UHGV virus genome: UHGV-0036853
Source of the DNA: a virus
DNA: 64,000 nt
Strand: one strand, 5' to 3'
Part shown: piece after piece, positions 5,140-17,046 of the stretch
Position numbering within the stretch: the first letter of the stretch is position 1
How the letters are laid out: every line of letters starts with the position of its first letter
Translations under genes and position numbers: made by a program
Notes under the pieces: model-generated
Told to the model about the DNA's origin: nothing
Database searches by the model: none
The model's input: the letters and a program-made list of their open reading frames with translations, nothing else

Positions 5140-8100
5140 CTATGTCTTAATAGTTTCTGCTACGTCGGCTAATATCGCTTCTAGTCGTTCTCCCTCTTCA
5201 GGTCTGAAGTAAAGAATGTTGGGGTTAAACCCGTAAAAGACAGTAACGTCAAGGTCTGGAAGATACTCCTTCCTGCCGACTAAATCGGATGGCTTGTTTT
5301 TGTTGTTAAACATTGCCGTTGCCCGGCTGCCACACGTCAGCACATAGGTCGGACGCACCAGATTGATCTCTTCACGCATAAAGTCGGTGAACTGGCCGAT
5401 CTCGTCTTTGGTGTAGTCCTTTTCTTTGTCTTTCACCTTTTTGCAAACGCCTGTGACATAGAGATCGCCCATGCGCAAATCCCCAGCCGTCAACAGCTTG
5501 GCCTTAAAATCGTCGTATCCGTTTTCCATAAAGTAACCGGTTCGAGCATCATTGCCGTTCGCATTGTCCAGAATGATCATGATTTTCGGCTTAATACCAA
5601 TGCTGGGGCGGATTAGTTCATCACCCAAGCCCATTTCAGCCGCCATCCGTGTCATGAGCACGTTAATCTCAGCCGAACGTTTGGGGTTCATCTCAAACGG
5701 ACGTGAGGCTTTAACTGCATCTATGACAAGGTTTCCCATCAATTCAGCCTGGTCGCGGAGGCGCTCTGGATCAGTTGCTGGCAGACTACCTGGCTCGATG
5801 GATGCAAACGCCCCTACTTTTTGCAGCGATTCGCGCACTCGACTATTACAGGCACGTTTCTCGACAGCTTCTTCGAATTGCGCAAGTGATTCGAATTTGC
5901 CGCCAACCTTTTCTCGCGCTCTCATGATGGCCAGGCAGCCATTCTCAGAACACCCTTTCACAGCAGAGAAGGGCGCATACAGCACCTGGCTACCATCTTC
6001 AAGCGTGCGGATCTCGATTCGGTTAGATGACACGTTAACGTCTGGTGGCAATACGCGAATACCATAGGTCAGCGCATCTTTAACCAGCCCCTGGTGTTTA
6101 TCTTCGCCAAGAATAGTGAGAGCAGCAGCGAAAAACTCTGCGGGATAATGAGTTTTCAACCACATAGATTGATAACTGATTAAGGAGTAAGCAACAGAGT
6201 GTGATTTGTTGAACTGGTAGGCACCATTCTTTTCGAATGCGGTCCAGATCTCCTTCGCTTTCATCTCTGATAGCCCTGGATGTGACGCTGTAACGCGTAC
6301 TGCGTTTATAGGTAGTTTTGCGCCGTACTCAAGTGCCTCTTCGACAGTTTTCAGAGTTCCGTCTTCGCATTTAAAATGTTCCGCACGGTGAATGCGCTGT
6401 GTAGTGCCATCTTCCAGCTCAACGTCTATCCAGCCAGCTTGAGCCTGAACGATGAACTTCTCGCCCATGCTCTTCATTTTTTCCATGTCTTTTTTGCCGA
6501 TCGCTTTACGAACGCCGTCAGCTTCAGCCATTGTGAAGCCAGCAAGCAATCGAGTCGCGTTCATCGTCTGTTCCTGATAGAGAATCACGCCATTTGTTTC
6601 TGCGGTAAGTTCATCAAGAACGGGGTGTAATGATTCCGGCGTCATAAAGCCTTTGGCGACAGAAACATAATCATCCAACATGCCTGACTGAATTGGTCCC
6701 GGCCGGAAGAGCGCAGTCGTAGCAACGACCGTTTTAAAGCTCATTGGCTCAATTCCACCACCTAAATCTTTAAGCAGCTTGCGCATTGGGCCTGATTCAA
6801 GCTGGAAAACACCTTGAGTGTACCCAGCAGCAAAACCATCCAGCACCTTGCGATCTTCAAGAGAAATGGCATCAAGATTGATATCTTCACCTCTGTTCTC
6901 TTTTATGTAGCGTTTTGCACTATCGAGCAAATCGAGAGTTGCTAGGCCAAGCACGTCCAGCTTAATTAGGCCCATAGCCTCGCAGTAACGCTTGTCAAAT
7001 GCGATACAACGCGCGTCACCACGTCGTTCAACCGGTGTACGTTCTGTCAGAGGAACACCTGCTACGATCATCCCTGCCGCATGTCTACCAAAGCCACGCA
7101 TAAGGCTTTGTAACTTGCAGGCTGCATTGAATGCATCAGGGTATTTTGTCGCGTATTTGTCGAGACTTGCCAGTTGTTCGCGCAGCTCCTCCAATGGAAG
7201 GCTATCATCCTCGACGTTCTTCAGTTCTTTTGATACCGCCATATCTGCGGACTCCACACCATAAATACGAGCGGTGTCACGTAGTGCAGAGGCCGCGCCC
7301 AGGTAGGTGAAGTTCGGAATGCCTGCAACGTAATCTTCGCCGTAGCGTTCATTCAGATACTCGATCACCTCATGGCGACGTGCCTGGCTGAAGTCCAAGT
7401 CCGCATCTGGCAAGTCGAGACGCTCAGGGTTGATGAAACGCTCAAACAGAAGACCGTGACGGATTGGGTCGACGTTGGTTATGCCTATGCACCACGCCAC
7501 CAGAGAACCGGCAGAGGAACCACGACCAGGCCCAACGGGAATGCCAGTTTCACGACTATGATTCATCAGATCGCGCACCATCAGGAAGTAACCACAGAAT
7601 CCCAGGCGAGTAAGCGTGTCCATTTCGTACTTTAGCCGCTCAACATAAACCCTGTTCTCAGAAGCTGGTGGTGTGTAGCCAAACTCTTTTGTGGTAAGAC
7701 GTTTACGCAGCCCTGCAACAGCCAGTTTCATCAGCGTTGCAGGTTCGTCGTCTGCCATCTTGGGCAGTGCTGGTGGCAATTCATGCCAGCGCCATGTACA
7801 GGCTTCGATAATGGCGTCCTGCGTTGTTGAGGCCATTGCAGCTGTTACCGGCACATCCATGCGAACGGAGAAGGCTTTAAGCGCCTCAAGGAGATGGCGG
7901 CGACCATTGACGGCGTTATCTCGCTGGTGGGGGATACGCAGACGATGCGGCTGGTCGATTTTGATGTTGTTCGTAACCATGTGCGCAATGTCTTTAATGT
8001 CTGCATCGTCGATCGATTCGTAATAAGCGGGATAAAACGCTACTGGCTCTATTTTCAGTGCGCTGGCGACTTTCATCGCCCGGAAGTTAATCTGGTCGTA

Positions 8101-8658
8101 GAATGGGGTAGGGTGCGGATAAACCACACTATAGAAGTTGTCTTTTCCACCCGCTGTAATCAGTGTGCTTATAATTTTTGCAAAATCGTTGCGTTGGAAC
8201 ACGCTACCGATGTCGGAAGTGAGCAGGATGATGTTGCCTTTGGCATATGTAGAAACCAACTGTTCGAGCGAGAGACGCGGTACAAAGTAGAACTGTTCTC
8301 GTGTGTTGGCCACCGTCATTAGTTCGCAGATGTCGCGATATCCTTGCTCATTTTTAATTAGAGCGGTAAACGAGTAGTTACGTCCTCGCTCTAATGATTC
8401 CATACATCCCTTAGACTCTTTAGCAAGTTTAGCCCGGTACTCGTATGTGGGATCATCAACGATATTTAGTTTCACACCACAAATAACCGCCATGTCGTCA
8501 CCAGCGGCACGTTGTAGTGGAATAACACTCGCAATATTCATGCTATCTGCTGAAATTACAGCGGTGTAGCCAGCTTCTCTGGCAATCTTCACCGCGTTTT
8601 CCGCTTTTAACGCCGACTCCCCAAGTGAGAAGTCAGTTCGAACCATCAGTGCCTTCAT
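5140..8658 (-). CDS. DNA polymerase III alpha-type (DnaE-like) replicative polymerase
   Basis: 1172 aa, N-terminal PHP-like region, polymerase-core conserved blocks. Confidence 0.85.
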   Translation of the reverse strand: MKALMVRTDFSLGESALKAENAVKIAREAGYTAVISADSMNIASVIPLQRAAGDDMAVICGVKLNIVDDPTYEYRAKLAKESKGCMESLERGRNYSFTALIKNEQGYRDICELMTVANTREQFYFVPRLSLEQLVSTYAKGNIILLTSDIGSVFQRNDFAKIISTLITAGGKDNFYSVVYPHPTPFYDQINFRAMKVASALKIEPVAFYPAYYESIDDADIKDIAHMVTNNIKIDQPHRLRIPHQRDNAVNGRRHLLEALKAFSVRMDVPVTAAMASTTQDAIIEACTWRWHELPPALPKMADDEPATLMKLAVAGLRKRLTTKEFGYTPPASENRVYVERLKYEMDTLTRLGFCGYFLMVRDLMNHSRETGIPVGPGRGSSAGSLVAWCIGITNVDPIRHGLLFERFINPERLDLPDADLDFSQARRHEVIEYLNERYGEDYVAGIPNFTYLGAASALRDTARIYGVESADMAVSKELKNVEDDSLPLEELREQLASLDKYATKYPDAFNAACKLQSLMRGFGRHAAGMIVAGVPLTERTPVERRGDARCIAFDKRYCEAMGLIKLDVLGLATLDLLDSAKRYIKENRGEDINLDAISLEDRKVLDGFAAGYTQGVFQLESGPMRKLLKDLGGGIEPMSFKTVVATTALFRPGPIQSGMLDDYVSVAKGFMTPESLHPVLDELTAETNGVILYQEQTMNATRLLAGFTMAEADGVRKAIGKKDMEKMKSMGEKFIVQAQAGWIDVELEDGTTQRIHRAEHFKCEDGTLKTVEEALEYGAKLPINAVRVTASHPGLSEMKAKEIWTAFEKNGAYQFNKSHSVAYSLISYQSMWLKTHYPAEFFAAALTILGEDKHQGLVKDALTYGIRVLPPDVNVSSNRIEIRTLEDGSQVLYAPFSAVKGCSENGCLAIMRAREKVGGKFESLAQFEEAVEKRACNSRVRESLQKVGAFASIEPGSLPATDPERLRDQAELMGNLVIDAVKASRPFEMNPKRSAEINVLMTRMAAEMGLGDELIRPSIGIKPKIMIILDNANGNDARTGYFMENGYDDFKAKLLTAGDLRMGDLYVTGVCKKVKDKEKDYTKDEIGQFTDFMREEINLVRPTYVLTCGSRATAMFNNKNKPSDLVGRKEYLPDLDVTVFYGFNPNILYFRPEEGERLEAILADVAETIKT

Positions 8659-8842
8659 GTGTTTTTACCTTTCTGGTTTTTTTGATTTTGTCATTGGGGA
8701 AGCCTACGAACTTCCCATGCATCGAAATCGCAACTTCTTTTGCTGATTGGTGACAATCGGGCTTGTCTGGACACACCAGACAAGCCTTACCAGTTTCAGA
8801 AGCAGCGATAAGAGAGCCGAAACATCCTTTACGCACGATCAA
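8633..8842 (-). CDS. small Cys-rich (zinc-ribbon-like) protein
   Basis: CLVCPDKPDCH; coupled between the AAA+ gene and the polymerase gene. Confidence 0.35.
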   Translation of the reverse strand: MIVRKGCFGSLIAASETGKACLVCPDKPDCHQSAKEVAISMHGKFVGFPNDKIKKTRKVKTHEGTDGSN

Positions 8843-10074
8843 CCAAATATTTTTTGAACAACTTCACGAGCCGCTTGTGCAGAAGCTGAAGGGAGTTTGT
8901 TAATGAAAGAACGCTCAATACCTGTCACGAAGTCGCCTCGCATCATTCCAATCTTGGCCGACAACAAAAGCTCACGAGGCCCAATCGGTTGGCTGATGTT
9001 GTGTTCTTCGTAACCATCGCGAACGATACCGGCAAACTTAACCATCTTTTCAGCGTATTCATCCACGATGCCGGCATTTATCAACATGTTGATCTCTGCC
9101 TCTTTGCTCATGTATTTCACATTTGAAACGATGCCAAAACGCGAAAAGTTCGCTGCGTTCTGGATGTTTGTCCCCTGGTACAAGCCAGTTTCATCACCAG
9201 AACCGTTTGTGTTGCCAGTGCCAATGAAAGCAAACCGTTCATGCGGAGTAATGCGACGCCATTCTGGTGTTGCCTCTTTGATGACCAACGCCTCACCTTC
9301 CAGCACAGGCTGATACACGCCAAGAATTTGTGGAAACGCAAAGTCGTATTCATCCGCGAGGTAAACCCAGCCATGCTTCATTGCGAGCGCAAGCAAGCCT
9401 GGCTCGAAATACGTAGAGCCATCACGCGCCAGAATTTGACCCGTAACATGAGCCTCTTCCATTGATGCTGTATGTTGGGCACGGATCAACGGACGATTGA
9501 GCAAAGCACATAGCTGTGTAGGCAATGACGATTTGCCTGTTCCTGCATGACCCCACAAATAGCCAGGTATGCCAAGTTCAAGCATCATGAAAATATCTTT
9601 GATCAGTTCGAAGTCGCCATATACGTAGCCTTTCTTCACTTCGGGAACGAACTCTGGAAACGGCGTATTGACGTTGACGCTAACCATGAGCGGCGTCCCA
9701 CGTTTTGTTCCGAGTTCTTCCACCGTTACGTCTAGCAGTTCGTGAGCTGCGACCAGATCTGTCTTGTACTCAACTGTGCCTATGTAGCCTGGGCTACTGG
9801 TCACGCCAGAAGATTTGGCCATTTCGCTTTTTTGCTCGGCACGTTTAGCTTGAATTGCATCCAGTGCCTTTTTCGATAGCGTTGGTTCATCTGGAAACTG
9901 CGTTGTGTACATTTTCAGTACGGTGTCAGGATCGGCATCTTTTACCGACTCAGGAATGCCTTCGCAATTACCATAGGCTACATGGGACTTAAAATAGTGA
10001 AATGATTTTCCGCACCACTTGCAAACAAGGTAATCAGAAGGATTTTTTTCATTTTGCAGTGCAGTAGTAGTCAT
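8839..10074 (-). CDS. MoxR/CobS-like AAA+ ATPase with N-terminal zinc finger
   Basis: Walker A GHAGTGKSSL, Walker B VYLADEYD, CKWCGKSFHYF N-terminus. Confidence 0.75.
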   Translation of the reverse strand: MTTTALQNEKNPSDYLVCKWCGKSFHYFKSHVAYGNCEGIPESVKDADPDTVLKMYTTQFPDEPTLSKKALDAIQAKRAEQKSEMAKSSGVTSSPGYIGTVEYKTDLVAAHELLDVTVEELGTKRGTPLMVSVNVNTPFPEFVPEVKKGYVYGDFELIKDIFMMLELGIPGYLWGHAGTGKSSLPTQLCALLNRPLIRAQHTASMEEAHVTGQILARDGSTYFEPGLLALAMKHGWVYLADEYDFAFPQILGVYQPVLEGEALVIKEATPEWRRITPHERFAFIGTGNTNGSGDETGLYQGTNIQNAANFSRFGIVSNVKYMSKEAEINMLINAGIVDEYAEKMVKFAGIVRDGYEEHNISQPIGPRELLLSAKIGMMRGDFVTGIERSFINKLPSASAQAAREVVQKIFG

Positions 10075-10169
10075 GCGTTTTTCCTTTGTTCTCTAATGAG
10101 CGTTCAACTTCTTATATAAATATATCATTAACTATCATAAGTAGTTACTTATCATTAAGGCTGTTTTAA

Positions 10170-12278
10170 TCACTTCAAAATGATACGAGATAGTTCAGTA
10201 ACTACAGATGAACCAAGACTATCAACGCTCGTTACCAGGGCATGATTTGCGTAAAATCTCTCCGGTGCGTCAGTCATTATGCCAATTGCCATCAAATCAA
10301 TGTCAGTCTGCGTTTCAATTTGCTTCGCAACCGAACGCAAATGAGCGTCAAAACCTCTCCCAACAGCCCACGGCGCGCCATCACTCAGAATAAGCATGAT
10401 CTTCCTGTCCTCCATGCGACCGGAAAATAACGATGCAAGGCTGGCTATGCTTTCACCATCCACGTTATTAAGAAGTGGGAATGTGTAGCCTACGCACCCC
10501 ATACGTGAGCGAACTTCGCGAGAATTTACCTTTTCATTCCAATTTTTGATGATAGGTAGCATTAAAGATTCAAAGCGAGAGAACTCATACTTGACAGCCT
10601 TAAGTTCTCCTGCCGCCATATGACTACCAAATGTAGTGAAGCCGGTGATAATGTTGGGAACATTTATTCGATCAAGGGCATCGGCGATGGTATATGCACT
10701 TGCAAGAGCCAATTGTATCGTTATACCACTCATTGAACCTGATAAATCAATCACTTGTTGAACACAGGCGTTAACGGCTTTAGATTCTTCTTTTTTACGA
10801 AACACGCGATCATCATTCATTGCTAATCTGTAGATACTAGAACCATGAATGCGCCCCCGACGCTGGCCCGGTATAAACTGAACTCTGTTTCTGCTTGCTA
10901 TTGCACGTTCCAGGTCTTTTGCTAGCGTCGACGAAACACCTGACGAAAGATGCTTTTCAATATATTTGTCGAAGAGCTGGTTGCCTTCAGGAACGATGCG
11001 ATAGCGGCTGATTGGATATCCTCCTAAATCAATATCGGAGAATGTTTTAATAAGCCGTTTGATATGGGCTTCTGCCTGATCAATCGAGCCGATGAAGTCG
11101 TATGAGCGATTGTATGGCCTGTATTCGCTTTTCGAGCTTTCTGTTAACTCGCTTTTAATCGTTTCGGATAGAGCATCTTCTGTCATGCCTCCGACTTCAT
11201 CTTCTATGCTATCCAGCTCCTCTAAAGCCTCTTCCAGACTCATTTTTGACGGAGTTGGAATATCTGAAGAGCCGTCTTCTGTCGTTTTTCTTTTTTCGTG
11301 GTCAGCGGTTAATGATTCTGACGCCGCGTTATCAGAAGCATCAGAATCTGATACCTCTTTATCATTTTCTGTATCATCGAATATTGTTTCTGATGATTCA
11401 GAATTATCTGAATCATCACTGTCGTTATTATCATGTTTGTGCTTACTATGTGATTCTGAGTTGATAGATTTGTGATTATCTAACGCTGAGGGTGTCTCAT
11501 GATCTTCGTTGTCTTCATTGTTTTCTCCAGAGGCATCCGTCTGGTCAGCGTCTGAAGGATCGGAAGTTTTTCCCGGAGCTGACTCCTTACCTTTGCTTTC
11601 ACTTTCAGTGTCTTTGAGGATCTTAGCTATGGTCGCAGCCACCTTTACACAATCCTCGGTGCAAGACATGTTACGCACGGCCACATCGATACCATGTTCT
11701 TTTAATAATGAAATTGGTTTCTCAATGACAGGCCAATATTCATCCATGAAATCTACGAACGGTGCTTGGCCATCCCAGGCTCTTACAACCGGACAGAGAA
11801 AGAAGTTTAGAAAAAGCGCGCGCTGATCTTTGCCACAATAAGCAATAGCCTCTGAAGCCTTTGGTTTAAAGACTTTTTCGATAATAAGGCGCTGAGTTGC
11901 CATCAGATTACGTCTTGTTCCGTTAAAGACCTGACCCATTTTTCGCTCGATGAACACGTCTTCTAAGGCATTCCATAGCGACCAGGAAGGAACGCGTCCT
12001 TTTCCTCTCATTTTGTTGGACACACGAATATCGGTAAACAAAATGTGAGCAACCTCATGATCGAGAAATCCGCGCACAGCATTCATCAATGCCGGTGTTG
12101 CGTTATCCGGGATTGATGGGATGTTTACGAGAATTGGCTCTCCATCATCGTTATAGCGTACATAAGCGTCGTCCCCTCGTTCTGCAACAGGGATGTTTTT
12201 ACCTGAAAGGAGAGCGACTACTCGTTTTACACTGTCACGGAAGTCCTGAACCTCTTTGATGGAACGTTTTTTAGACAT
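10170..12278 (-). CDS. CobT-like von Willebrand factor A (vWA) domain protein
   Basis: MIDAS motif DLSGSMSG; long acidic Ser/Asp-rich low-complexity insert (about 11200-11600). Confidence 0.7.
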   Translation of the reverse strand: MSKKRSIKEVQDFRDSVKRVVALLSGKNIPVAERGDDAYVRYNDDGEPILVNIPSIPDNATPALMNAVRGFLDHEVAHILFTDIRVSNKMRGKGRVPSWSLWNALEDVFIERKMGQVFNGTRRNLMATQRLIIEKVFKPKASEAIAYCGKDQRALFLNFFLCPVVRAWDGQAPFVDFMDEYWPVIEKPISLLKEHGIDVAVRNMSCTEDCVKVAATIAKILKDTESESKGKESAPGKTSDPSDADQTDASGENNEDNEDHETPSALDNHKSINSESHSKHKHDNNDSDDSDNSESSETIFDDTENDKEVSDSDASDNAASESLTADHEKRKTTEDGSSDIPTPSKMSLEEALEELDSIEDEVGGMTEDALSETIKSELTESSKSEYRPYNRSYDFIGSIDQAEAHIKRLIKTFSDIDLGGYPISRYRIVPEGNQLFDKYIEKHLSSGVSSTLAKDLERAIASRNRVQFIPGQRRGRIHGSSIYRLAMNDDRVFRKKEESKAVNACVQQVIDLSGSMSGITIQLALASAYTIADALDRINVPNIITGFTTFGSHMAAGELKAVKYEFSRFESLMLPIIKNWNEKVNSREVRSRMGCVGYTFPLLNNVDGESIASLASLFSGRMEDRKIMLILSDGAPWAVGRGFDAHLRSVAKQIETQTDIDLMAIGIMTDAPERFYANHALVTSVDSLGSSVVTELSRIILK

Positions 12279-12295
12279 GTCTAATCCTTTGTTAT

Positions 12296-12330
12296 GAAAA
12301 CAAATTGTTTACTAGTGTGTTTAATGTAGC
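12296..12330 (-). promoter_or_regulatory. conserved AAACAAnTTGTTT-type motif upstream of vWA gene
   Basis: motif family 2. Confidence 0.5.
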
Positions 12331-12376
12331 ACTGCGCGAACAGGGAACTAAGCCATTCGCGCAGGGAGAAGAGGGG

Positions 12377-12589
12377 TTAACAGATTCTGACGGCTAAAGA
12401 CCCGGAGCCGGTATTGAGAAGCGTGAAGCGTTTGTTGTTAAGTTCGAATATAAAGCCAGTTGTGTCATTCACACCAACCTGAATCTGCTCATTCGGTAGA
12501 TCGGTGAGGATGTCAGCTACACACTCATCAGCTAATTTCTGTACGTGTCCGATCTCAAGAGCGATTAGGCTGGAAATAGTGGTTTTCAT
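12377..12589 (-). CDS. hypothetical protein
   Basis: ORF only. Confidence 0.3.
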   Translation of the reverse strand: MKTTISSLIALEIGHVQKLADECVADILTDLPNEQIQVGVNDTTGFIFELNNKRFTLLNTGSGSLAVRIC

Positions 12590-12840
12590 TCAATCAATCC
12601 ATTCTAACTTATACTATGGTAAGGAATACTACTAAAATTTGTATCAATACTGAATACATCCATATCAGATGCAAGTTAATTTTCTTACCTATTTTGGGCT
12701 AGTTTTTCTCCATGCATGGACCTTTACTCGGTCTTACAAGTGCCTGCCGAAAAAAATGATAATAGCTTTACAACCCTAACCTTTGATGTAATATCGGTAA
12801 GCACTTACCAGAGAGAATTAAACGCGCAAAGGTTGTAACA

Positions 12841-13227
12841 ATGTCTGACAACAAGATTGAATTTATAGAAAGTCGCTATGCTGCTTTTATCGCAGGGCTG
12901 ATTGAATCCTCACCTATGAGTCAGGCCCAAATAGCCAGACTTATTGGTTATAAAAATGCCAACAACCTTTCTTTAATTAAAAGTGGCAAAATTCCTTTGC
13001 CTATCGATAAGGTTCGTCCGTTGGCGCTGGCGCTGGGTATTGAGCCAAGTCGTCTTATGATGATGGTGCTGGAAGAACGCCAACCTGAACTCGCAGCATT
13101 TTTATACAAAGAAGGCACCGCTCCTCTTAACGAGGACGAAAAACAGGTTCTTGCTGCATATAACGAGCGATTCGGTAAAGAGAAAGGCGCATCACAAAAG
13201 GTTGTTGAGGCCATAAAGTCTCTATGA
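12841..13227 (+). CDS. HTH (XRE-like) transcriptional regulator
   Basis: helix-turn-helix signature SQAQIARLIGYKNANNLSLIKSG; convergent with integrase. Confidence 0.55.
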   Translation: MSDNKIEFIESRYAAFIAGLIESSPMSQAQIARLIGYKNANNLSLIKSGKIPLPIDKVRPLALALGIEPSRLMMMVLEERQPELAAFLYKEGTAPLNEDEKQVLAAYNERFGKEKGASQKVVEAIKSL

Positions 13228-14325
13228 AAAATTTACACGAATAAGCTCTGTTGATAGACGATCTCCCTTGAATTTGTGGTCAATTTCGTCTAAATCCGGT
13301 TGCTCTACGATTGATGCGATGTACGTCGAGAAACTTTCTAAGGCGTCTCGCATCTCGTCCATATAATCGTGCCGGTCGTAGACCCGATCTATCCCCTCAA
13401 GACTGTGGTTCATGATTTTGCGTGATACCTCCTGGCTTATGCCTAATGCTGGGAAGTAACTACGCGCAGTACGGCGCAAATCTCGGGGTGTAAATGGCTC
13501 AAGCTCCATCAGTTCTGGTCTTTCCAGAATACGACGTAATGCCTGGGCTATTGCCACTTTGGACATAGGAAGGTCTTTCCCGATTTTTTTATTCGAAGGC
13601 ACGAGCCACTGGCTGTCTTTACCGTATTCGAACAACTCTTCAATGCATGTGCGCATTAATGTGCTTAAAGGCAGCGAATGCTCACGTGCTGACTTGTTTC
13701 TCTTGCCTTGATTCCAAACCCCACGCTTAAGATTGAACTCACTTTTTTTAGCCCGCAGTACTTCGTCAGGTCGTCTTGCTGATACAAGACACAGCCTGGC
13801 CGCCCATTTTGTACCAGCGCACACATTGAAGTAGTCCCATATATTCCAGAACACCCATACCTCTGCGTCGGTCAGCTTCCGCTCGCGAGGTGTGGGCTTT
13901 GCGCCACCGGCAACTTTGTTTAGTGACATATCGTTTAACGGTGACACGTCTATCATCCCCTGGAAGGCGCACCAGCTAAGGAACTGCTTCATCAGAGAGA
14001 AAACGCGGCGGCCCATAACAATTTTGCCATCCAGTATTAGTGGGTTGACCAGTTGGTTCACCATGAACCTATTAATGTCACTTACTTTTACATCGGCAAT
14101 GTGCGGCAAAACATGTATCAAAATACAATGAACAGCGATCTCTGGCCGACGTCTGGTTATCAGCAGAGATAAGCGAGTGAATAACATGAATGCGTCCGAG
14201 AATCTCATATCATTGCTAACCTGCGAGATCATAACGGCCTGCATTTGAGATGCTCTTTCGAGATACTCAATCGCCTCTTTTGAGGTGTTCTCCGCAGCGC
14301 GTGCTCTGTCAAAGCTATTTTTCAT
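13222..14325 (-). CDS. tyrosine recombinase / integrase
   Basis: C-terminal catalytic region with RDLRRTARS, NHSLEG and Y in DRHDYMD. Confidence 0.75.
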   Translation of the reverse strand: MKNSFDRARAAENTSKEAIEYLERASQMQAVMISQVSNDMRFSDAFMLFTRLSLLITRRRPEIAVHCILIHVLPHIADVKVSDINRFMVNQLVNPLILDGKIVMGRRVFSLMKQFLSWCAFQGMIDVSPLNDMSLNKVAGGAKPTPRERKLTDAEVWVFWNIWDYFNVCAGTKWAARLCLVSARRPDEVLRAKKSEFNLKRGVWNQGKRNKSAREHSLPLSTLMRTCIEELFEYGKDSQWLVPSNKKIGKDLPMSKVAIAQALRRILERPELMELEPFTPRDLRRTARSYFPALGISQEVSRKIMNHSLEGIDRVYDRHDYMDEMRDALESFSTYIASIVEQPDLDEIDHKFKGDRLSTELIRVNFS

Positions 14326-14413
14326 ATGACAATCACCGAGTTACGCCGATTCACTGTATAAGTAAACAGTATATTAGGCATAGATTCTTATAGGATCAAG
14401 AGTAAAAGTAACT

Positions 14414-14446
14414 CATTTTCACTAATGATTCCATACATAGTAGGTA
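14414..14446. promoter_or_regulatory. perfect 13-bp-arm inverted repeat, candidate operator
   Basis: aatgattccatac atagtag gtatggaatcatt; half-site copies near 17238-17254 and 18251-18267. Confidence 0.5.
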
Positions 14447-14509
14447 TGGAATCATTTAGACGTTGTTTTTTGAATTTTAAGGGAAACAGGAGTGAGTTTG
14501 GTGGGAATA

Positions 14510-14533
14510 AAAAAACGGCTCCTGTGAGCCGTT
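14510..14533 (-). terminator. intrinsic terminator downstream of glutaredoxin gene
   Basis: hairpin cggctcctgtgagccg followed by T-run on minus strand. Confidence 0.55.
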
Positions 14534-14537
14534 AAAA

Positions 14538-14783
14538 TCAGAGGGTGCTGACGTATGCAGCCAGTTCTGTGTATCCGCCAATCGGCTGGCCATCGATCAG
14601 CACCTGGGGGATAGTCTCTACCGGTTTACCAACAATTTCACTTAGTTTTTCCTTGTCGATACCGGCAGTGGTGATGTCGATGTACTCATAATCACCGTAG
14701 CCATGTCCCTTTAGTTGCTTCGCCAGCTCGACTGCACGTTTGCAGTATGAGCAGTTATCTCGTCCGTAGATAGTGATCGTCAT
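14538..14783 (-). CDS. glutaredoxin (GrxA/NrdH-like)
   Basis: CSYC active site; KPVETIPQVLIDGQPIGGY matches the glutaredoxin fold. Confidence 0.8.
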   Translation of the reverse strand: MTITIYGRDNCSYCKRAVELAKQLKGHGYGDYEYIDITTAGIDKEKLSEIVGKPVETIPQVLIDGQPIGGYTELAAYVSTL

Positions 14784-14956
14784 AACCTAACAAATACCTT
14801 TATAAATATTGATTCGAACATATCAGACTATACTACAAACAGATTTTTTTGATAAGTATGTAGTAACTTATTGATTGACTGGTAAACAATTGAAGTGATT
14901 ATGACAATAGATTACAGTAAGGATTGCCTTGAAATGTACATTTTATAGAGGTTTTA

Positions 14957-15865
14957 ATGATTGGTAAGTTGTCTGATTCTTTGATTGAAAATAAATACAA
15001 CGAATTTAGAGAAGAAATATCTTTACTTTTTGACTATTTAAATCAGATAAATGATACAACAAAGAAAAATATAAAACGTCTTCTAAAAGAAGTGGAGTAT
15101 GCACAGAATCCAGATACTATTATTAATATTAATGAAACTATTAAGATTAAGTGTGGCACAACGTTAGCTCGCCATTTATGTTCAAACCCATATACAGGTT
15201 CAACATTAGAGATAGGTAACAGCGCCATTGATTTAGAAGAAAAGATAAGATTGTGTAATGTTTTGAAGAATAAACAATATCAGTGGGTTATTACTGAAGC
15301 CTATGAGTTACTGGAAGACTATATTGAGGCAATATATGTCTATACTGTATGTGTTCGAAATGATTTCTGGTCCTCAAGTAATTTTGGTAAGGTTGAAGAT
15401 GATGACATTGGGAAAGGGGAAGTTTATTACAAATTATTAAAAGCAAAAAGTAACCCATCGAAAAAAATAATTAAAATTTTCAGAAATAAAATACCTGGCT
15501 TCAAAGAGATAGAAATAAACAACAAGATTGGTAAAAACTATCGCTTTAACATCAAGCTAATTGAACTACTAAGACATACAATAGTACACAATAGTGGACG
15601 ATTCAATGATACAGAAAAATTTATAAATAAGGTTTTAGATGAATCTGAAATAAACGGTAAGAAAAGAGTTATTGGAGAAAGAGCTGTTAGAAGTTACATT
15701 GCTAAAGTGCAAGAAGATGATATTGTAATGCTCTTAGAAAGACCATCTGAAATTTTTGGTTCTTTTGGTGGTTATTTTAACAGAGCAAAATTTTTACTAA
15801 GTGATATTTTAGAATACTCACTAATCATTAAAGAAGAACTAAAATCATATCTAGGCAATCATTAA
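14957..15865 (+). CDS. AT-rich accessory protein, possible HEPN-type (Abi-like) protein
   Basis: 302 aa, low GC by eye, Rx4H motif RHTIVH, own terminator; functional call is weak. Confidence 0.4.
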   Translation: MIGKLSDSLIENKYNEFREEISLLFDYLNQINDTTKKNIKRLLKEVEYAQNPDTIININETIKIKCGTTLARHLCSNPYTGSTLEIGNSAIDLEEKIRLCNVLKNKQYQWVITEAYELLEDYIEAIYVYTVCVRNDFWSSSNFGKVEDDDIGKGEVYYKLLKAKSNPSKKIIKIFRNKIPGFKEIEINNKIGKNYRFNIKLIELLRHTIVHNSGRFNDTEKFINKVLDESEINGKKRVIGERAVRSYIAKVQEDDIVMLLERPSEIFGSFGGYFNRAKFLLSDILEYSLIIKEELKSYLGNH

Positions 15866-16044: not shown

Positions 16045-16131
16045 TGGCGGAGAGTAATGGAATCGAACCATCATCGCTTGCGCAATGGGACGGTTTTCAA
16101 GACCGCTTGAGCACCATGCTCCCTACTCTCC
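16045..16131 (-). tRNA. tRNA-Ser (anticodon UGA), long variable arm
   Basis: cloverleaf by hand: acceptor GGAGAGT/ACTCTCC, anticodon loop CTTGAAA, T-loop GGTTCGATTCC, encoded CCA. Confidence 0.7.
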
Positions 16132-16799
16132 GGCCGTTGTGGTGGCCGGTACTGAATCTCCGGCATACGGTGCAGCCAATTAGGACTACGGACGATCACC
16201 GCTCGCGAAAGGGAAGATTTGCGGCCGCATTTCCCTAACATCCAAGAAAGCTATCGCATCAGTCTGCGAATCCACCACAACGGAAAGAGCATTCACGTCT
16301 CGCGTGCCACCACGAATGGCAACTCAGAGAGTCGAACTCTGAAAATGCTCTTACCTGTTGTGTGCTGTGTCACTCCCTCCGCTATTACCTGGCTTTGCCT
16401 CGACCTTTTAGGTTGCGTCCGATGATAAACAGGGCTGTCGGAAATTTGTCTGTGACACAGCGATAAGAGAACTCGATGCATTTAAGCCAAGCCCCATATG
16501 GGAAGTTCTCTTATCTGTTGTGCGCTCCGTTTCGTGGAGCTAACGGCGGGTGAACAGGCCGCACCAGGTTGGACATATTTCAGCGTTATGCTGTTGCAAG
16601 AGAGCCAAATTGTGATGGTCGGTGCTGAACTCCGACACAGGGTTGTAGCAAGCCCCGCAAAGCGCGCACTACTGTAGTTGCGGCACATCAGCCTGTGCAT
16701 TCACCACAATGTTGAGAACACTGGTTGTCACGCTGCAACGCAACATTTATTCATAGATTGGGATATGACCCCGTTACGCCAATGTTCTCAATATTATGT

Positions 16800-16875
16800 T
16801 GGTGCCGGTTAACGGACTTGAACCGCTGACCATTCGCTTACAAAGCGACTGCTCTACCAACTGAGCTAAACCGGC
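16800..16875 (-). tRNA. tRNA-Thr (anticodon UGU)
   Basis: acceptor GCCGGTT/AACCGGC, D-arm TAGCTCAGTTGGTAGAGCA, anticodon loop TTTGTAA, T-loop GGTTCAAGTCC, CCA. Confidence 0.75.
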
Positions 16876-16879
16876 AATT

Positions 16880-16966
16880 TGGTGGGGAGTGATGGAGTCG
16901 AACCACCCGAGTCGCAATGACAGTAGATTTACAGTCTACCCCGCTACCCCTACGGACTAACTCCCC
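16880..16966 (-). tRNA. tRNA-Tyr (anticodon GUA), long variable arm
   Basis: acceptor GGGGAGT/ACTCCCC, anticodon arm GTAGA-CTGTAAA-TCTAC, T-loop GGTTCGACTCC, CCA. Confidence 0.7.
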
Positions 16967-16971
16967 TAAAT

Positions 16972-17046
16972 TGGCGATGGTGGGTGGATTCGAACCACCG
17001 ACCAGTTGGTTAACAGCCAACTGCTCTACCGCTGAGCTACACCATC
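16972..17046 (-). tRNA. tRNA-Asn (anticodon GUU)
   Basis: acceptor GATGGTG/CACCATC, anticodon arm GTTGG-CTGTTAA-CCAAC, T-loop GGTTCGAATCC, CCA. Confidence 0.7.

Follow-up and report, generated by a model that had tools for sequence, protein, structure and literature searches.

A CobS/CobT-like gene pair in an SSU5-type phage-plasmid: a candidate lytic-cycle AAA+/vWA cochaperone module, probably not a working cobaltochelatase

Introduction

What do relatives of the cobaltochelatase motor proteins CobS and CobT do in a phage? The question is raised by positions 8633-12278 of a 64,000-nucleotide stretch of UHGV virus genome UHGV-0036853 (hereafter the window). There, a first-pass annotation made from the sequence had described a 411-amino-acid (aa) AAA+ ATPase with an N-terminal zinc finger, a 702-aa von Willebrand factor A (vWA) protein with a MIDAS motif (metal ion-dependent adhesion site) and a long acidic insert, and a small Cys-rich protein as a triad next to the DNA polymerase gene dnaE. 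It considered the role of such AAA+/vWA pairs in phages unresolved, and the literature agrees: the function of viral cobST is acknowledged as unknown (PMC9983427; PMC8651126), with one published hypothesis holding that viral CobST hijacks the CobN of the host (PMC8651126). Here, we argue with moderate confidence that the phage-type cobT-cobS module is a lytic-cycle MoxR-class AAA+/vWA cochaperone pair and not a working cobaltochelatase. The pair is most likely an early-lytic remodeller, and possibly a protease.

Results

An AAA+ ATPase beside a vWA protein with a complete MIDAS

The block under study comprises four genes:

10170-12278, minus strand: CobT-like cochaperone, 702 aa, with N-domain, acidic linker and vWA-MIDAS domain (Pfam, phrog and solved-structure matches)
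8839-10074, minus strand: CobS-like MoxR-class AAA+ ATPase, 411 aa (AAA_5, phrog_249 and solved CobS)
8633-8842, minus strand: small Cys4 protein, 69 aa from a TTG start, probably 67 aa (phrog_6337, 2e-45)
5140-8658, minus strand: DnaE-type (C-family) DNA polymerase, 1172 aa, downstream in the same co-oriented block (Pfam PHP, DNA_pol3_alpha, finger and HHH_6)

The two large genes upstream of dnaE form a MoxR-class AAA+/vWA cochaperone pair, in which a gene with intact Walker A and B motifs stands beside a vWA gene with a complete MIDAS. Hidden Markov model (HMM) searches bear out the MoxR/CobS-like identity of the 411-aa protein (AAA_5, E 2e-15; phrog_249, E 3e-106), and the solved cobaltochelatase CobS (9ujv_A) matches it at E 4e-26 over residues 142-411 only, with weaker structure matches to Midasin, CbbQ and NorQ. 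Both its Walker A (GHAGTGKS, residues 175-182, 9529-9552, minus strand) and its Walker B (VYLADE, residues 237-242, 9349-9366, minus strand) are intact. The N-terminal zinc finger is also real: a C-x2-C-x4-H-x4-H knuckle (CKWCGKSFHYFKSH, residues 18-31, 9982-10023, minus strand) sits in an N-terminal extension of about 140 aa, which has no Pfam match over residues 1-140 and which precedes the point, residue 142, from which genuine CobS aligns. This knuckle is conserved in gamma-, beta- and most alphaproteobacterial relatives; it was legible in 13 of the 18 related loci scanned and reads C-x2-D in two alphaproteobacterial ones, and the annotated CobS of Pseudomonas phage ZY21 carries it, though the 18-locus scan missed that copy through a wrong start codon.

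The CobT-like identity of the 702-aa protein is borne out too (CobT_C, E 2e-82; CobT, E 8e-27). The Pfam CobT family (PF06213, the N-domain) scores 94.8 bits against a gathering threshold of 26.1 and CobT_C (PF11775, the vWA domain) 276.3 against 21, phrog_1576 matches at E 3e-301, and the solved CobT chains 9uka_G and 21vt_A match the C-terminal half of the protein. Its parts are:

11634-12278, minus strand: N-domain, residues 1-215, with HEVAH at 12045-12059 and N-x2-ED-x3-E at 11946-11972
11154-11633, minus strand: acidic linker rich in Ser, Asp and Glu, about 160 residues (residues ~216-375), recognized by composition
10173-10808, minus strand: vWA domain, with the MIDAS motifs DLSGS at 10734-10748, GFTT at 10632-10643 and LSDG at 10377-10388

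All elements of the reported MIDAS are present (D511-x-S513-x-S515, T548/T549 and D633), and the DLSGS, GFTT and LSDG columns are invariant in our CobT alignment A1. A first homologue search with CobT returned only close relatives; an exhaustive HMMER search gave 5027 CobT representatives at E up to 1e-3, of which the best 150 were clustered at 50% identity, 146 of them being full length. D.SGSM is kept in 142 of these 146. The acidic insert was correctly described as to composition (17% Ser, 16% Asp, 14% Glu, net charge -34), and it is the fastest-evolving part of cobT (proportion of nonsynonymous differences, pN, 0.41 against SSU5) and variable in length, CobT homologues ranging from 588 to 843 aa. 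As a peculiarity of this protein, however, it does not stand: the solved genuine CobT also has an acidic linker followed by a Y-x-x-F/Y-x-R-x-x-D motif, so that the insert is a trait of the family.

The element itself is an SSU5-type phage-plasmid, because the segment is 97.6-98.1% identical over 3646 nt to Escherichia phages Cyrano, PhiR41_1 and CMS-2020a and matches 464 plasmid records from Escherichia, Enterobacter, Yersinia, Salmonella, Citrobacter and others. Salmonella phage SSU5 is 74% identical over the same 3.6-kb segment, and the window is syntenic with both SSU5 and Cyrano. The three open reading frames (ORFs) lie exactly where they had been reported, on the minus strand, and the ORF map of the window confirms that they are co-oriented with dnaE. 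At the gene junctions, the stop codon of cobS shares 4 nt (TTGA) with the TTG start of the small ORF, or lies 2 nt from the start if this is a GTG; the small ORF in turn overlaps the ATG of dnaE by 26 nt. The genes cobT and cobS do not overlap and are separated by an AT-rich spacer of 95 nt.

Purifying selection acts on all four genes when they are compared with SSU5. Both cobS and dnaE have a dN/dS ratio of 0.04, and the small ORF has one of 0.18; cobT is saturated at synonymous sites, and its domains show a pN of 0.14-0.22 against a proportion of synonymous differences (pS) of about 0.8-0.86. Amino-acid identity to SSU5 is also mosaic from gene to gene (DnaE 94%, small ORF 90%, CobS 81%, CobT 67%), and dS is far lower in the small ORF and DnaE; so strong a mosaic across 8633-12278 suggests recombination breakpoints within the block.

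The pair has been annotated before, in the SSU5 record JQ965645 and related plasmid records, and presumably already in the original descriptions of pMT1 and pHCM2. Database names for the two large genes include 'porphyrin biosynthesis protein', 'cobaltochelatase CobT-related protein' and 'AAA family ATPase'. In Cyrano, CYRAN_47/48 (12207-15646 of its locus) are labelled 'dimethylbenzimidazole phosphoribosyltransferase' and 'cobalamin synthetase', which we take to be a name collision with the unrelated cobT and cobS of Salmonella nomenclature; the small Cys4 ORF is unannotated there.

The pair is probably not a working cobaltochelatase in this element

We conclude that the pair is probably not a working cobaltochelatase here, because its equivalog scores are low, the element encodes neither CobN nor a B12-dependent enzyme, and E. 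coli is without CobN. Against the NCBIfam equivalog models, the ATPase scores 87.1 bits where TIGR01650 (CobS) has a cut-off of 558.55, and the vWA protein 67 bits where TIGR01651 (CobT) has one of 759.05, about ten-fold under the cut-offs. No CobN-like ORF was found in the window, nor any CobN among the 126 annotated genes of the 98%-identical Cyrano. The only ORFs in the window above 1000 aa are DnaE and two of 1175 and 1576 aa, which fit Cyrano tail fibre, tape-measure or host-specificity genes by size and order alone. The Cyrano annotation contains class Ia NrdAB, ThyX, dihydrofolate reductase, MazG and methionyl-tRNA synthetase, and no B12-dependent enzyme (no NrdJ and no MetH). To our knowledge, neither E. 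coli nor Vibrio cholerae, the host of phage ICP2, has CobN or de novo corrin synthesis; the proposal that the viral proteins hijack CobN therefore has no target in this host.

Homology to the genuine motor (CobS-CobT; 9ujv/9uka and 21vu/21vt) is nevertheless real. Both systems combine AAA+, a vWA/MIDAS domain and a PF06213 N-domain, and the CobT proteins also have in common the acidic linker and a Y-x-x-F-T-R-x-x-D motif. They differ in that the phage pair has no CobN partner in the element and is set in a phage replication operon, in that phage CobS bears the extra N-terminal extension with its zinc knuckle, and in that genuine CobT has S, M and Q where phage CobT has HExxH.

A zincin-like motif in the CobT N-domain

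In the 702-aa protein, HEVAH occupies residues 74-78 and is followed by N103-x2-E106-D107-x3-E111, a gluzincin-type arrangement in which an HExxH predicted to lie in a helix and a downstream Glu (E106, E111) recur family-wide. HExxH is kept in 142 of the 146 full-length representatives (from the best 150 of 5027), in 17 of the 18 full-length copies of the fetched loci, and, of six viral CobTs that are very far apart, in five (those of the SSU5-type element, a Rhizobium phage, Vibrio phage ICP2, Roseobacter phage CRP-810 and cyanophage S-ShM2). At this site the N-domain of genuine CobT, as solved in 21vu_H, reads G-D-S-M-A-L-R-Q, with S, M and Q in place of H, E and H, and retains both downstream Glu residues; a profile of 11 viral N-domains aligns to it weakly (E 0.45, residues 8-139) within the same Pfam family. 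At the level of motifs, then, viral CobTs keep a putative zincin-like signature that the one solved cobaltochelatase CobT lacks. By the same signature, the N-domain may have a zincin-like fold and cleave proteins. The homologue in cyanophage S-ShM2 carries the annotation 'peptidase', and a phmmer search of the N-domain against the PDB gave noise only.

A separate observation concerns the same domain. The viral N-domain profile matches the anti-CRISPR AcrIIA26 (9zq6_B) at E 0.0027 over 50 residues around N-x2-ED-x2-IE...G-x3-N (profile residues ~87-137; window 11946-11972), which may be chance or a shared helical element.

The pair recurs in replication modules

The order helicase, primase, ligase, CobT, CobS, (X), DnaE, gp32-like single-stranded DNA-binding protein (SSB), exonuclease and RecA is kept in SSU5, Pseudomonas Nickievirus ZY21 and Rhizobium phage RHph_N1_10, and also in the frameshifted record of Xanthomonas phage JGB6. 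CobT-CobS-DnaE appears in this order in 15 of 15 informative genome loci, mostly contigs of 96-113 kb, from sources that include Kluyvera, Yersinia, Buttiauxella, Morganella, Photobacterium, Roseospira, Oxalobacter, Chitinibacter, Faunimonas, Paraburkholderia and Massilia. All four informative metagenomic relatives (30-35% identity) agree, and the order persists at 30-40% identity across alpha-, beta- and gammaproteobacterial elements. The genome scan, made with CobS alignment patterns, retrieved the DnaE-phage clade only and left genuine bacterial cobST loci unsampled; and as the DnaE-type loci are one phage supergroup, their conserved order counts as conservation, not as independent evidence.

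Phages unrelated to this supergroup do supply independent evidence. The podovirus ICP2 has cobT-cobS ahead of its genes for primase, helicase and an A-family polymerase (PolA); the T4-like cyanophage S-ShM2 has, in order, gp46 ... 'peptidase' (CobT), nrdC, cobS, a hypothetical gene, gp45, gp44 and gp62. Because these two phages also place the pair in replication modules, it occurs with replisomes of the C, A and B families; the pair of Roseobacter phage CRP-810 is not beside replication genes.

Some observations on individual loci belong here. An apparent CobS-DnaE fusion in JGB6 was rejected as an artefact of a frameshift-ridden record (OQ436456.1), which mislabels CobT and CobS fragments (L003 5899-8651) as 'DNA polymerase III subunit alpha' and also 'PHP domain', and labels the true DnaE fragments (10134-13285) otherwise. 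The S-ShM2 nrdC gene (L008 6797-7039) lies directly between the cobT-like 'peptidase' gene and cobS, and the window has a glutaredoxin (NrdH/NrdC-like) gene at 14538-14783 (minus strand), 2.2 kb upstream of cobT, a possible redox link. Finally, several deletion derivatives of about 62 kb, among them the Escherichia albertii plasmid CP043243.1 (62 kb), still have cobT, cobS and the small ORF annotated; no virion genes are annotated in the 50 kb inspected, there are gaps where RecA and SSB are expected, and a shortened DnaE lies beside a separate 'uracil-DNA glycosylase' coding sequence.

Expression timing and the neighbouring repressor-like gene

Expression data are available for a cyanophage homologue. 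For P-HM2, cobS was assigned to the Early (A) class under light and to the Mid (B) class in darkness; the genes flanking it, including g45, are Mid, and the structural genes are Late (PMC5082946 and its supplementary file 3). From its synteny, PHM2_134 would be the CobT homologue of this phage. Upstream of cobT the window contains two further genes:

12377-12589, minus strand: 70-aa ORF (phrog_2627, 6e-41; no Pfam match)
12841-13227, plus strand: helix-turn-helix (HTH) repressor-like gene, divergent from the cobT operon (weak HTH_19 and HTH_37 matches)

The HTH gene is the orthologue of CYRAN_45, the 'putative repressor' of Cyrano, and CYRAN_46-49 are the 70-aa ORF, CobT, CobS and DnaE. The published table of genes expressed above prophage background in the Cyrano lysogen includes the repressor CYRAN_45 but not CYRAN_46-49 (PMC9928086). 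An HTH gene divergent from a 56-67-aa ORF, which is followed by CobT, is also found in three distant relatives, L031, L032 and L034; the layout lies at:

window: 12377-13227
L031: 6705-7413
L032: 6373-7807
L034: 6598-7877

The recurrence of this divergent layout in L031, L032 and L034 suggests that cobT-cobS belong to the first lytic operon, and the 70-aa ORF is possibly the first gene of that leftward operon. A promoter and terminator scan found fewer sites than in shuffled sequences and was uninformative on operon structure, and no operator-like repeats were found upstream of cobT. An integrase gene often accompanies the HTH layout (13222-14325 in the window), and the whole resembles an immunity region that leads into an early operon beginning with cobT. 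SSU5 is without the insert of the HTH region and has a tRNA-Asn gene at that place.

A conserved Cys4 protein that tracks sigma and DnaE

The small ORF had been called a zinc ribbon and the third member of a triad, and neither label fits well. Its four cysteines (C7, C21, C24 and C30) are spaced C-x13-C-x2-C-x5-C, not as two CxxC knuckles. As homologues begin at a GTG two codons downstream of the TTG (GTG at 8836), the product is probably of 67 aa (8633-8836). Homologues of 61-90% identity occur in Salmonella, Yersinia, Klebsiella, Citrobacter and Cronobacter, and the four Cys, together with a Gly one residue after the first, are invariant in 12 lineages. In most lineages the Cys4 motif stands at the front of a longer protein (about 180-240 aa), which ends directly before DnaE, and in at least 12 of those a sigma-70-family gene of 209-259 aa lies between CobS and the Cys4 protein. 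All seven newly tested sigma proteins, and the one of the Rhizobium phage, exceed the gathering score of Pfam Sigma70_r2, and further copies are annotated on metagenomic contigs. The sigma-70-family genes between cobS and the Cys4 gene are at:

L005: 10209-10844
L015: 2197-2835
L016: 9161-9802
L017: 3862-4587
L018: 9094-9795
L020: 9194-9823
L021: 9229-9876
L023: 9192-9971
L031: 10397-11044
L032: 11347-11994
L034: 11490-12131

Since the sigma gene sits between CobS and Cys4 in these relatives, the ancestral block would have been CobT-CobS-sigma-Cys4-DnaE, from which the enterobacterial branch, the window included, would have lost sigma while keeping a Cys4 stub of 57-69 aa. No Cys4 protein was found beside cobST in the ICP2, CRP-810 or cyanophage loci inspected; it tracks DnaE and sigma instead. 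The Cys4 gene, translationally coupled here, is thus not an obligate partner of the AAA+/vWA pair, and its product is a real and conserved putative metal-binding factor whose ties are to sigma and DnaE, rather than a proven third subunit. It may be a sigma partner, an anti-sigma factor or a replisome accessory.

Searches for more distant relatives of the Cys4 family were negative. In a set of 5.8 billion proteins, both single-sequence and 12-lineage profile searches returned enterobacterial orthologues only; neither the short nor the long forms match Pfam, Whib included at E up to 10; a profile search of the PDB returned no WhiB chain and, as its best match, the DnaI N-domain at a non-significant E of 0.68. 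The AlphaFold2 (AF2) model of the 69-aa protein has a mean confidence (pLDDT) of 48. The Cys motif does conform to the C-x(n)-C-x2-C-x5-C of WhiB-like (Wbl) proteins, UniRef labels a Citrobacter orthologue '4Fe-4S Wbl-type domain-containing protein', and in relatives the gene lies beside that of a sigma factor. However, the long forms lack the G[VI]WGG turn and the hosts are Proteobacteria. The spacing C-x2-C-x5-C is also common to the zinc-binding N-domain of the helicase loader DnaI, for which the match is not significant.

Other features of the neighbourhood

Between 14000 and 16000 the GC content falls to 0.36, against about 0.46 elsewhere, and the stretch holds a 302-aa ORF (14957-15865, plus strand) with no Pfam match. 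Cyrano has a different gene there, CYRAN_43, which is highly expressed in lysogens, and the stretch is probably a cargo or moron hotspot beside the tRNA cluster. Four minus-strand tRNA genes lie at 16045-17046 (Ser-TGA, Thr-TGT, Tyr-GTA and Asn-GTT); Cyrano is annotated with Ser, Thr and Asn only. In relatives, the C-terminus of DnaE shows a weak match to a uracil-DNA glycosylase (UDG)-like Pfam family (L031 11211-15467; L029 13128-16565), and the L031 gene is interrupted by an HNH/NUMOD3 homing-endonuclease gene into parts of 785 aa and 395 aa (HHH_6 and UDG). DnaE of the window has no UDG match at E up to 0.001.

Discussion

Our favoured reading of the cobT-cobS module, a lytic-cycle AAA+/vWA cochaperone pair, implies a mechanism of the following kind. 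The CobS-like protein, whose Walker A and B motifs are intact, would form an ATP-hydrolysing ring, as homology to solved CobS suggests, and the CobT-like protein would dock on this ring through its C-terminal half, as in the solved CobS-CobT complexes. By analogy with the MoxR-vWA mechanism (PMC7159879), the MIDAS site seen in the vWA domain would capture an acidic residue or peptide of a client, which ATP-driven force would then remodel. In most lineages, the flexible acidic linker would also bring the client to the N-domain with its zincin-like HExxH for possible cleavage. Both the place of the pair in the first leftward operon, beside the repressor gene and ahead of DnaE, and the early or middle expression of its cyanophage homologue suggest work done as phage DNA replication or host takeover begins, not a part in virion building.

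Several points weigh against this reading, or against its proteolytic part. Pseudomonas phage ZY21 and 4 of the 146 representatives have lost HExxH, which means that proteolysis is not universally essential. The contrast between viral and genuine CobT depends on one solved protein aligned at E 0.45. The N-domain matches no peptidase family in Pfam, its best match being DUF2268 at E 0.17 in one member, and its AF2 model, built from a shallow alignment, reaches a pLDDT of 50; at the level of secondary structure, that model places HExxH and the Glu motif, with low confidence, in consecutive helices after two short strands. The pair may be placed in replication modules simply because of when it is expressed. 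CobN-type proteins do exist in the hosts of some relatives (Rhizobium, Pseudomonas, cyanobacteria), where a chelatase-related role is possible. Finally, our literature searches found no experimental study of phage cobS or cobT function.

Among the other explanations, the one that survives best, though we regard it as quite unlikely, is that the MoxR-vWA-peptidase pair folds or processes structural proteins as a virion-assembly chaperone or protease. Such a role was proposed for group 2.2 jumbo phages, where a MoxR ATPase accompanies a vWA cochaperone fused to an N-terminal metallopeptidase domain (Iyer et al. 2021, PMC7824862), an architecture that, likened by its description, is the same as that of the window pair; a further MoxR-vWA precedent exists in the tail development of the archaeal Acidianus two-tailed virus (ATV). 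However, context and timing here favour functions that are early or linked to replication. Some 15-40 kb separate the pair from the genes for head, tail and lysis in Cyrano and SSU5, where it shares its orientation with ligase and DnaE, and the cyanophage homologue is early or middle where structural genes are late. The E. albertii derivatives, which keep cobT, cobS and the small ORF with no virion genes annotated in the 50 kb inspected, argue in the same direction, but weakly, as their deletion may be recent.

Less probable again is a role in conflict or counter-defence, one of the possibilities raised by the first-pass annotation, in which the pair would capture and inactivate or degrade a host defence or housekeeping protein, or would defend the plasmid prophage. 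MoxR-vWA cores do occur in predicted conflict systems (PMC7159879), an early operon beside an immunity region would suit host takeover, and the CobT N-domain profile weakly matches AcrIIA26. Yet that match is one short motif only. PADLOC gave no meaningful match; its sole hit was to DrmE, with 15 bits in the acidic linker. Replication genes surround the pair, and the VMAP, effector or similar third partner that typifies the ternary systems (Kaur et al. 2020) is absent. The pair is moreover a conserved core under strong purifying selection, unlike a variable island gene, and its absence from the published list of over-expressed Cyrano lysogen genes argues against a prophage-encoded defence.

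The proposal that viral CobS-CobT is an auxiliary metabolic gene set that boosts cobalamin synthesis by hijacking CobN of the host, or else a CobN-like chelatase H subunit (PMC8651126), is in our view very unlikely, since standard annotation, true homology to the solved proteins and a common CobT architecture are met by low equivalog scores, enterobacterial and Vibrio hosts lacking CobN, an element with neither CobN nor a B12-dependent enzyme, a core and early or middle position in replication modules, and N-terminal domains (HExxH and zinc knuckle) that the genuine proteins do not have.

How does the proposed cochaperone pair relate to known systems? CbbQ-CbbO (Rubisco activase), NorQ-NorD, RavA-ViaA, Midasin and BchI-BchD likewise combine an AAA_5/MoxR-class ATPase with an adjacent MIDAS-vWA partner; they differ in that their clients are known and encoded nearby and in that the vWA partner bears no HExxH domain. 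No candidate client gene is evident in the window beyond the replication genes. Another comparison is with the viral cobST cluster of T4-like cyanophages and of haloarchaeal, Vibrio and Roseobacter phages, which has the same two genes, domain order, HExxH and MIDAS, and which also lies inside replication modules in ICP2 and S-ShM2. It is distinguished by its 20-30% identity, by CobS copies without the C-x2-C-x4-H-x4-H N-domain, by having no adjoining Cys4 or sigma gene, and by A- or B-family polymerases in place of DnaE. No orthology to a characterised replication factor emerged for the pair, which is core in all related phages.

The gene pair, the viral cobST cluster and the peptidase-vWA/MoxR architecture are thus already known. 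Three points may be modestly new: viral CobTs have HExxH where genuine CobT has S, M and Q, the pair recurs in replication modules alongside all three polymerase families, and CobT-CobS-sigma-Cys4-DnaE form a block. It is tempting to speculate further and to join these points, although we consider the combined picture unlikely to hold as a whole. Phage CobS-CobT would then be non-metabolic and a widespread, ATP-driven, MIDAS-targeted metalloprotease or remodeller, which tailed phages with A-, B- or C-family replisomes would use at the start of replication, for example to strip or cleave some protein, of host or phage, at the machinery of replication or transcription. Genuine cobaltochelatase CobT would be a derivative that lost the peptidase site, and in DnaE phages the pair would share one operon with a phage sigma factor and a Cys4 (Fe-S/Zn) partner of sigma or DnaE.

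The question matters beyond this element. About one copy of cobS per genome is found in marine myocyanophages, of which it is a core gene; cobT-cobS is core in the SSU5/pHCM2/pMT1 phage-plasmid family of E. coli, Salmonella, Klebsiella and Yersinia pestis; and viromics routinely counts cobS and cobT as vitamin-B12 'auxiliary metabolic genes'. Because its E. coli host is without CobN, the function of the pair is testable here by clean genetics, and the 98%-identical PhiR41_1 is recorded on E. coli K-12 MG1655. Should the pair turn out to be a dispensable passenger, the locus would be an ordinary one. If instead it is an early-lytic remodeller or protease, B12 readings of viral cobS abundance would need revising, and the pair would represent a new kind of phage replication or takeover factor.

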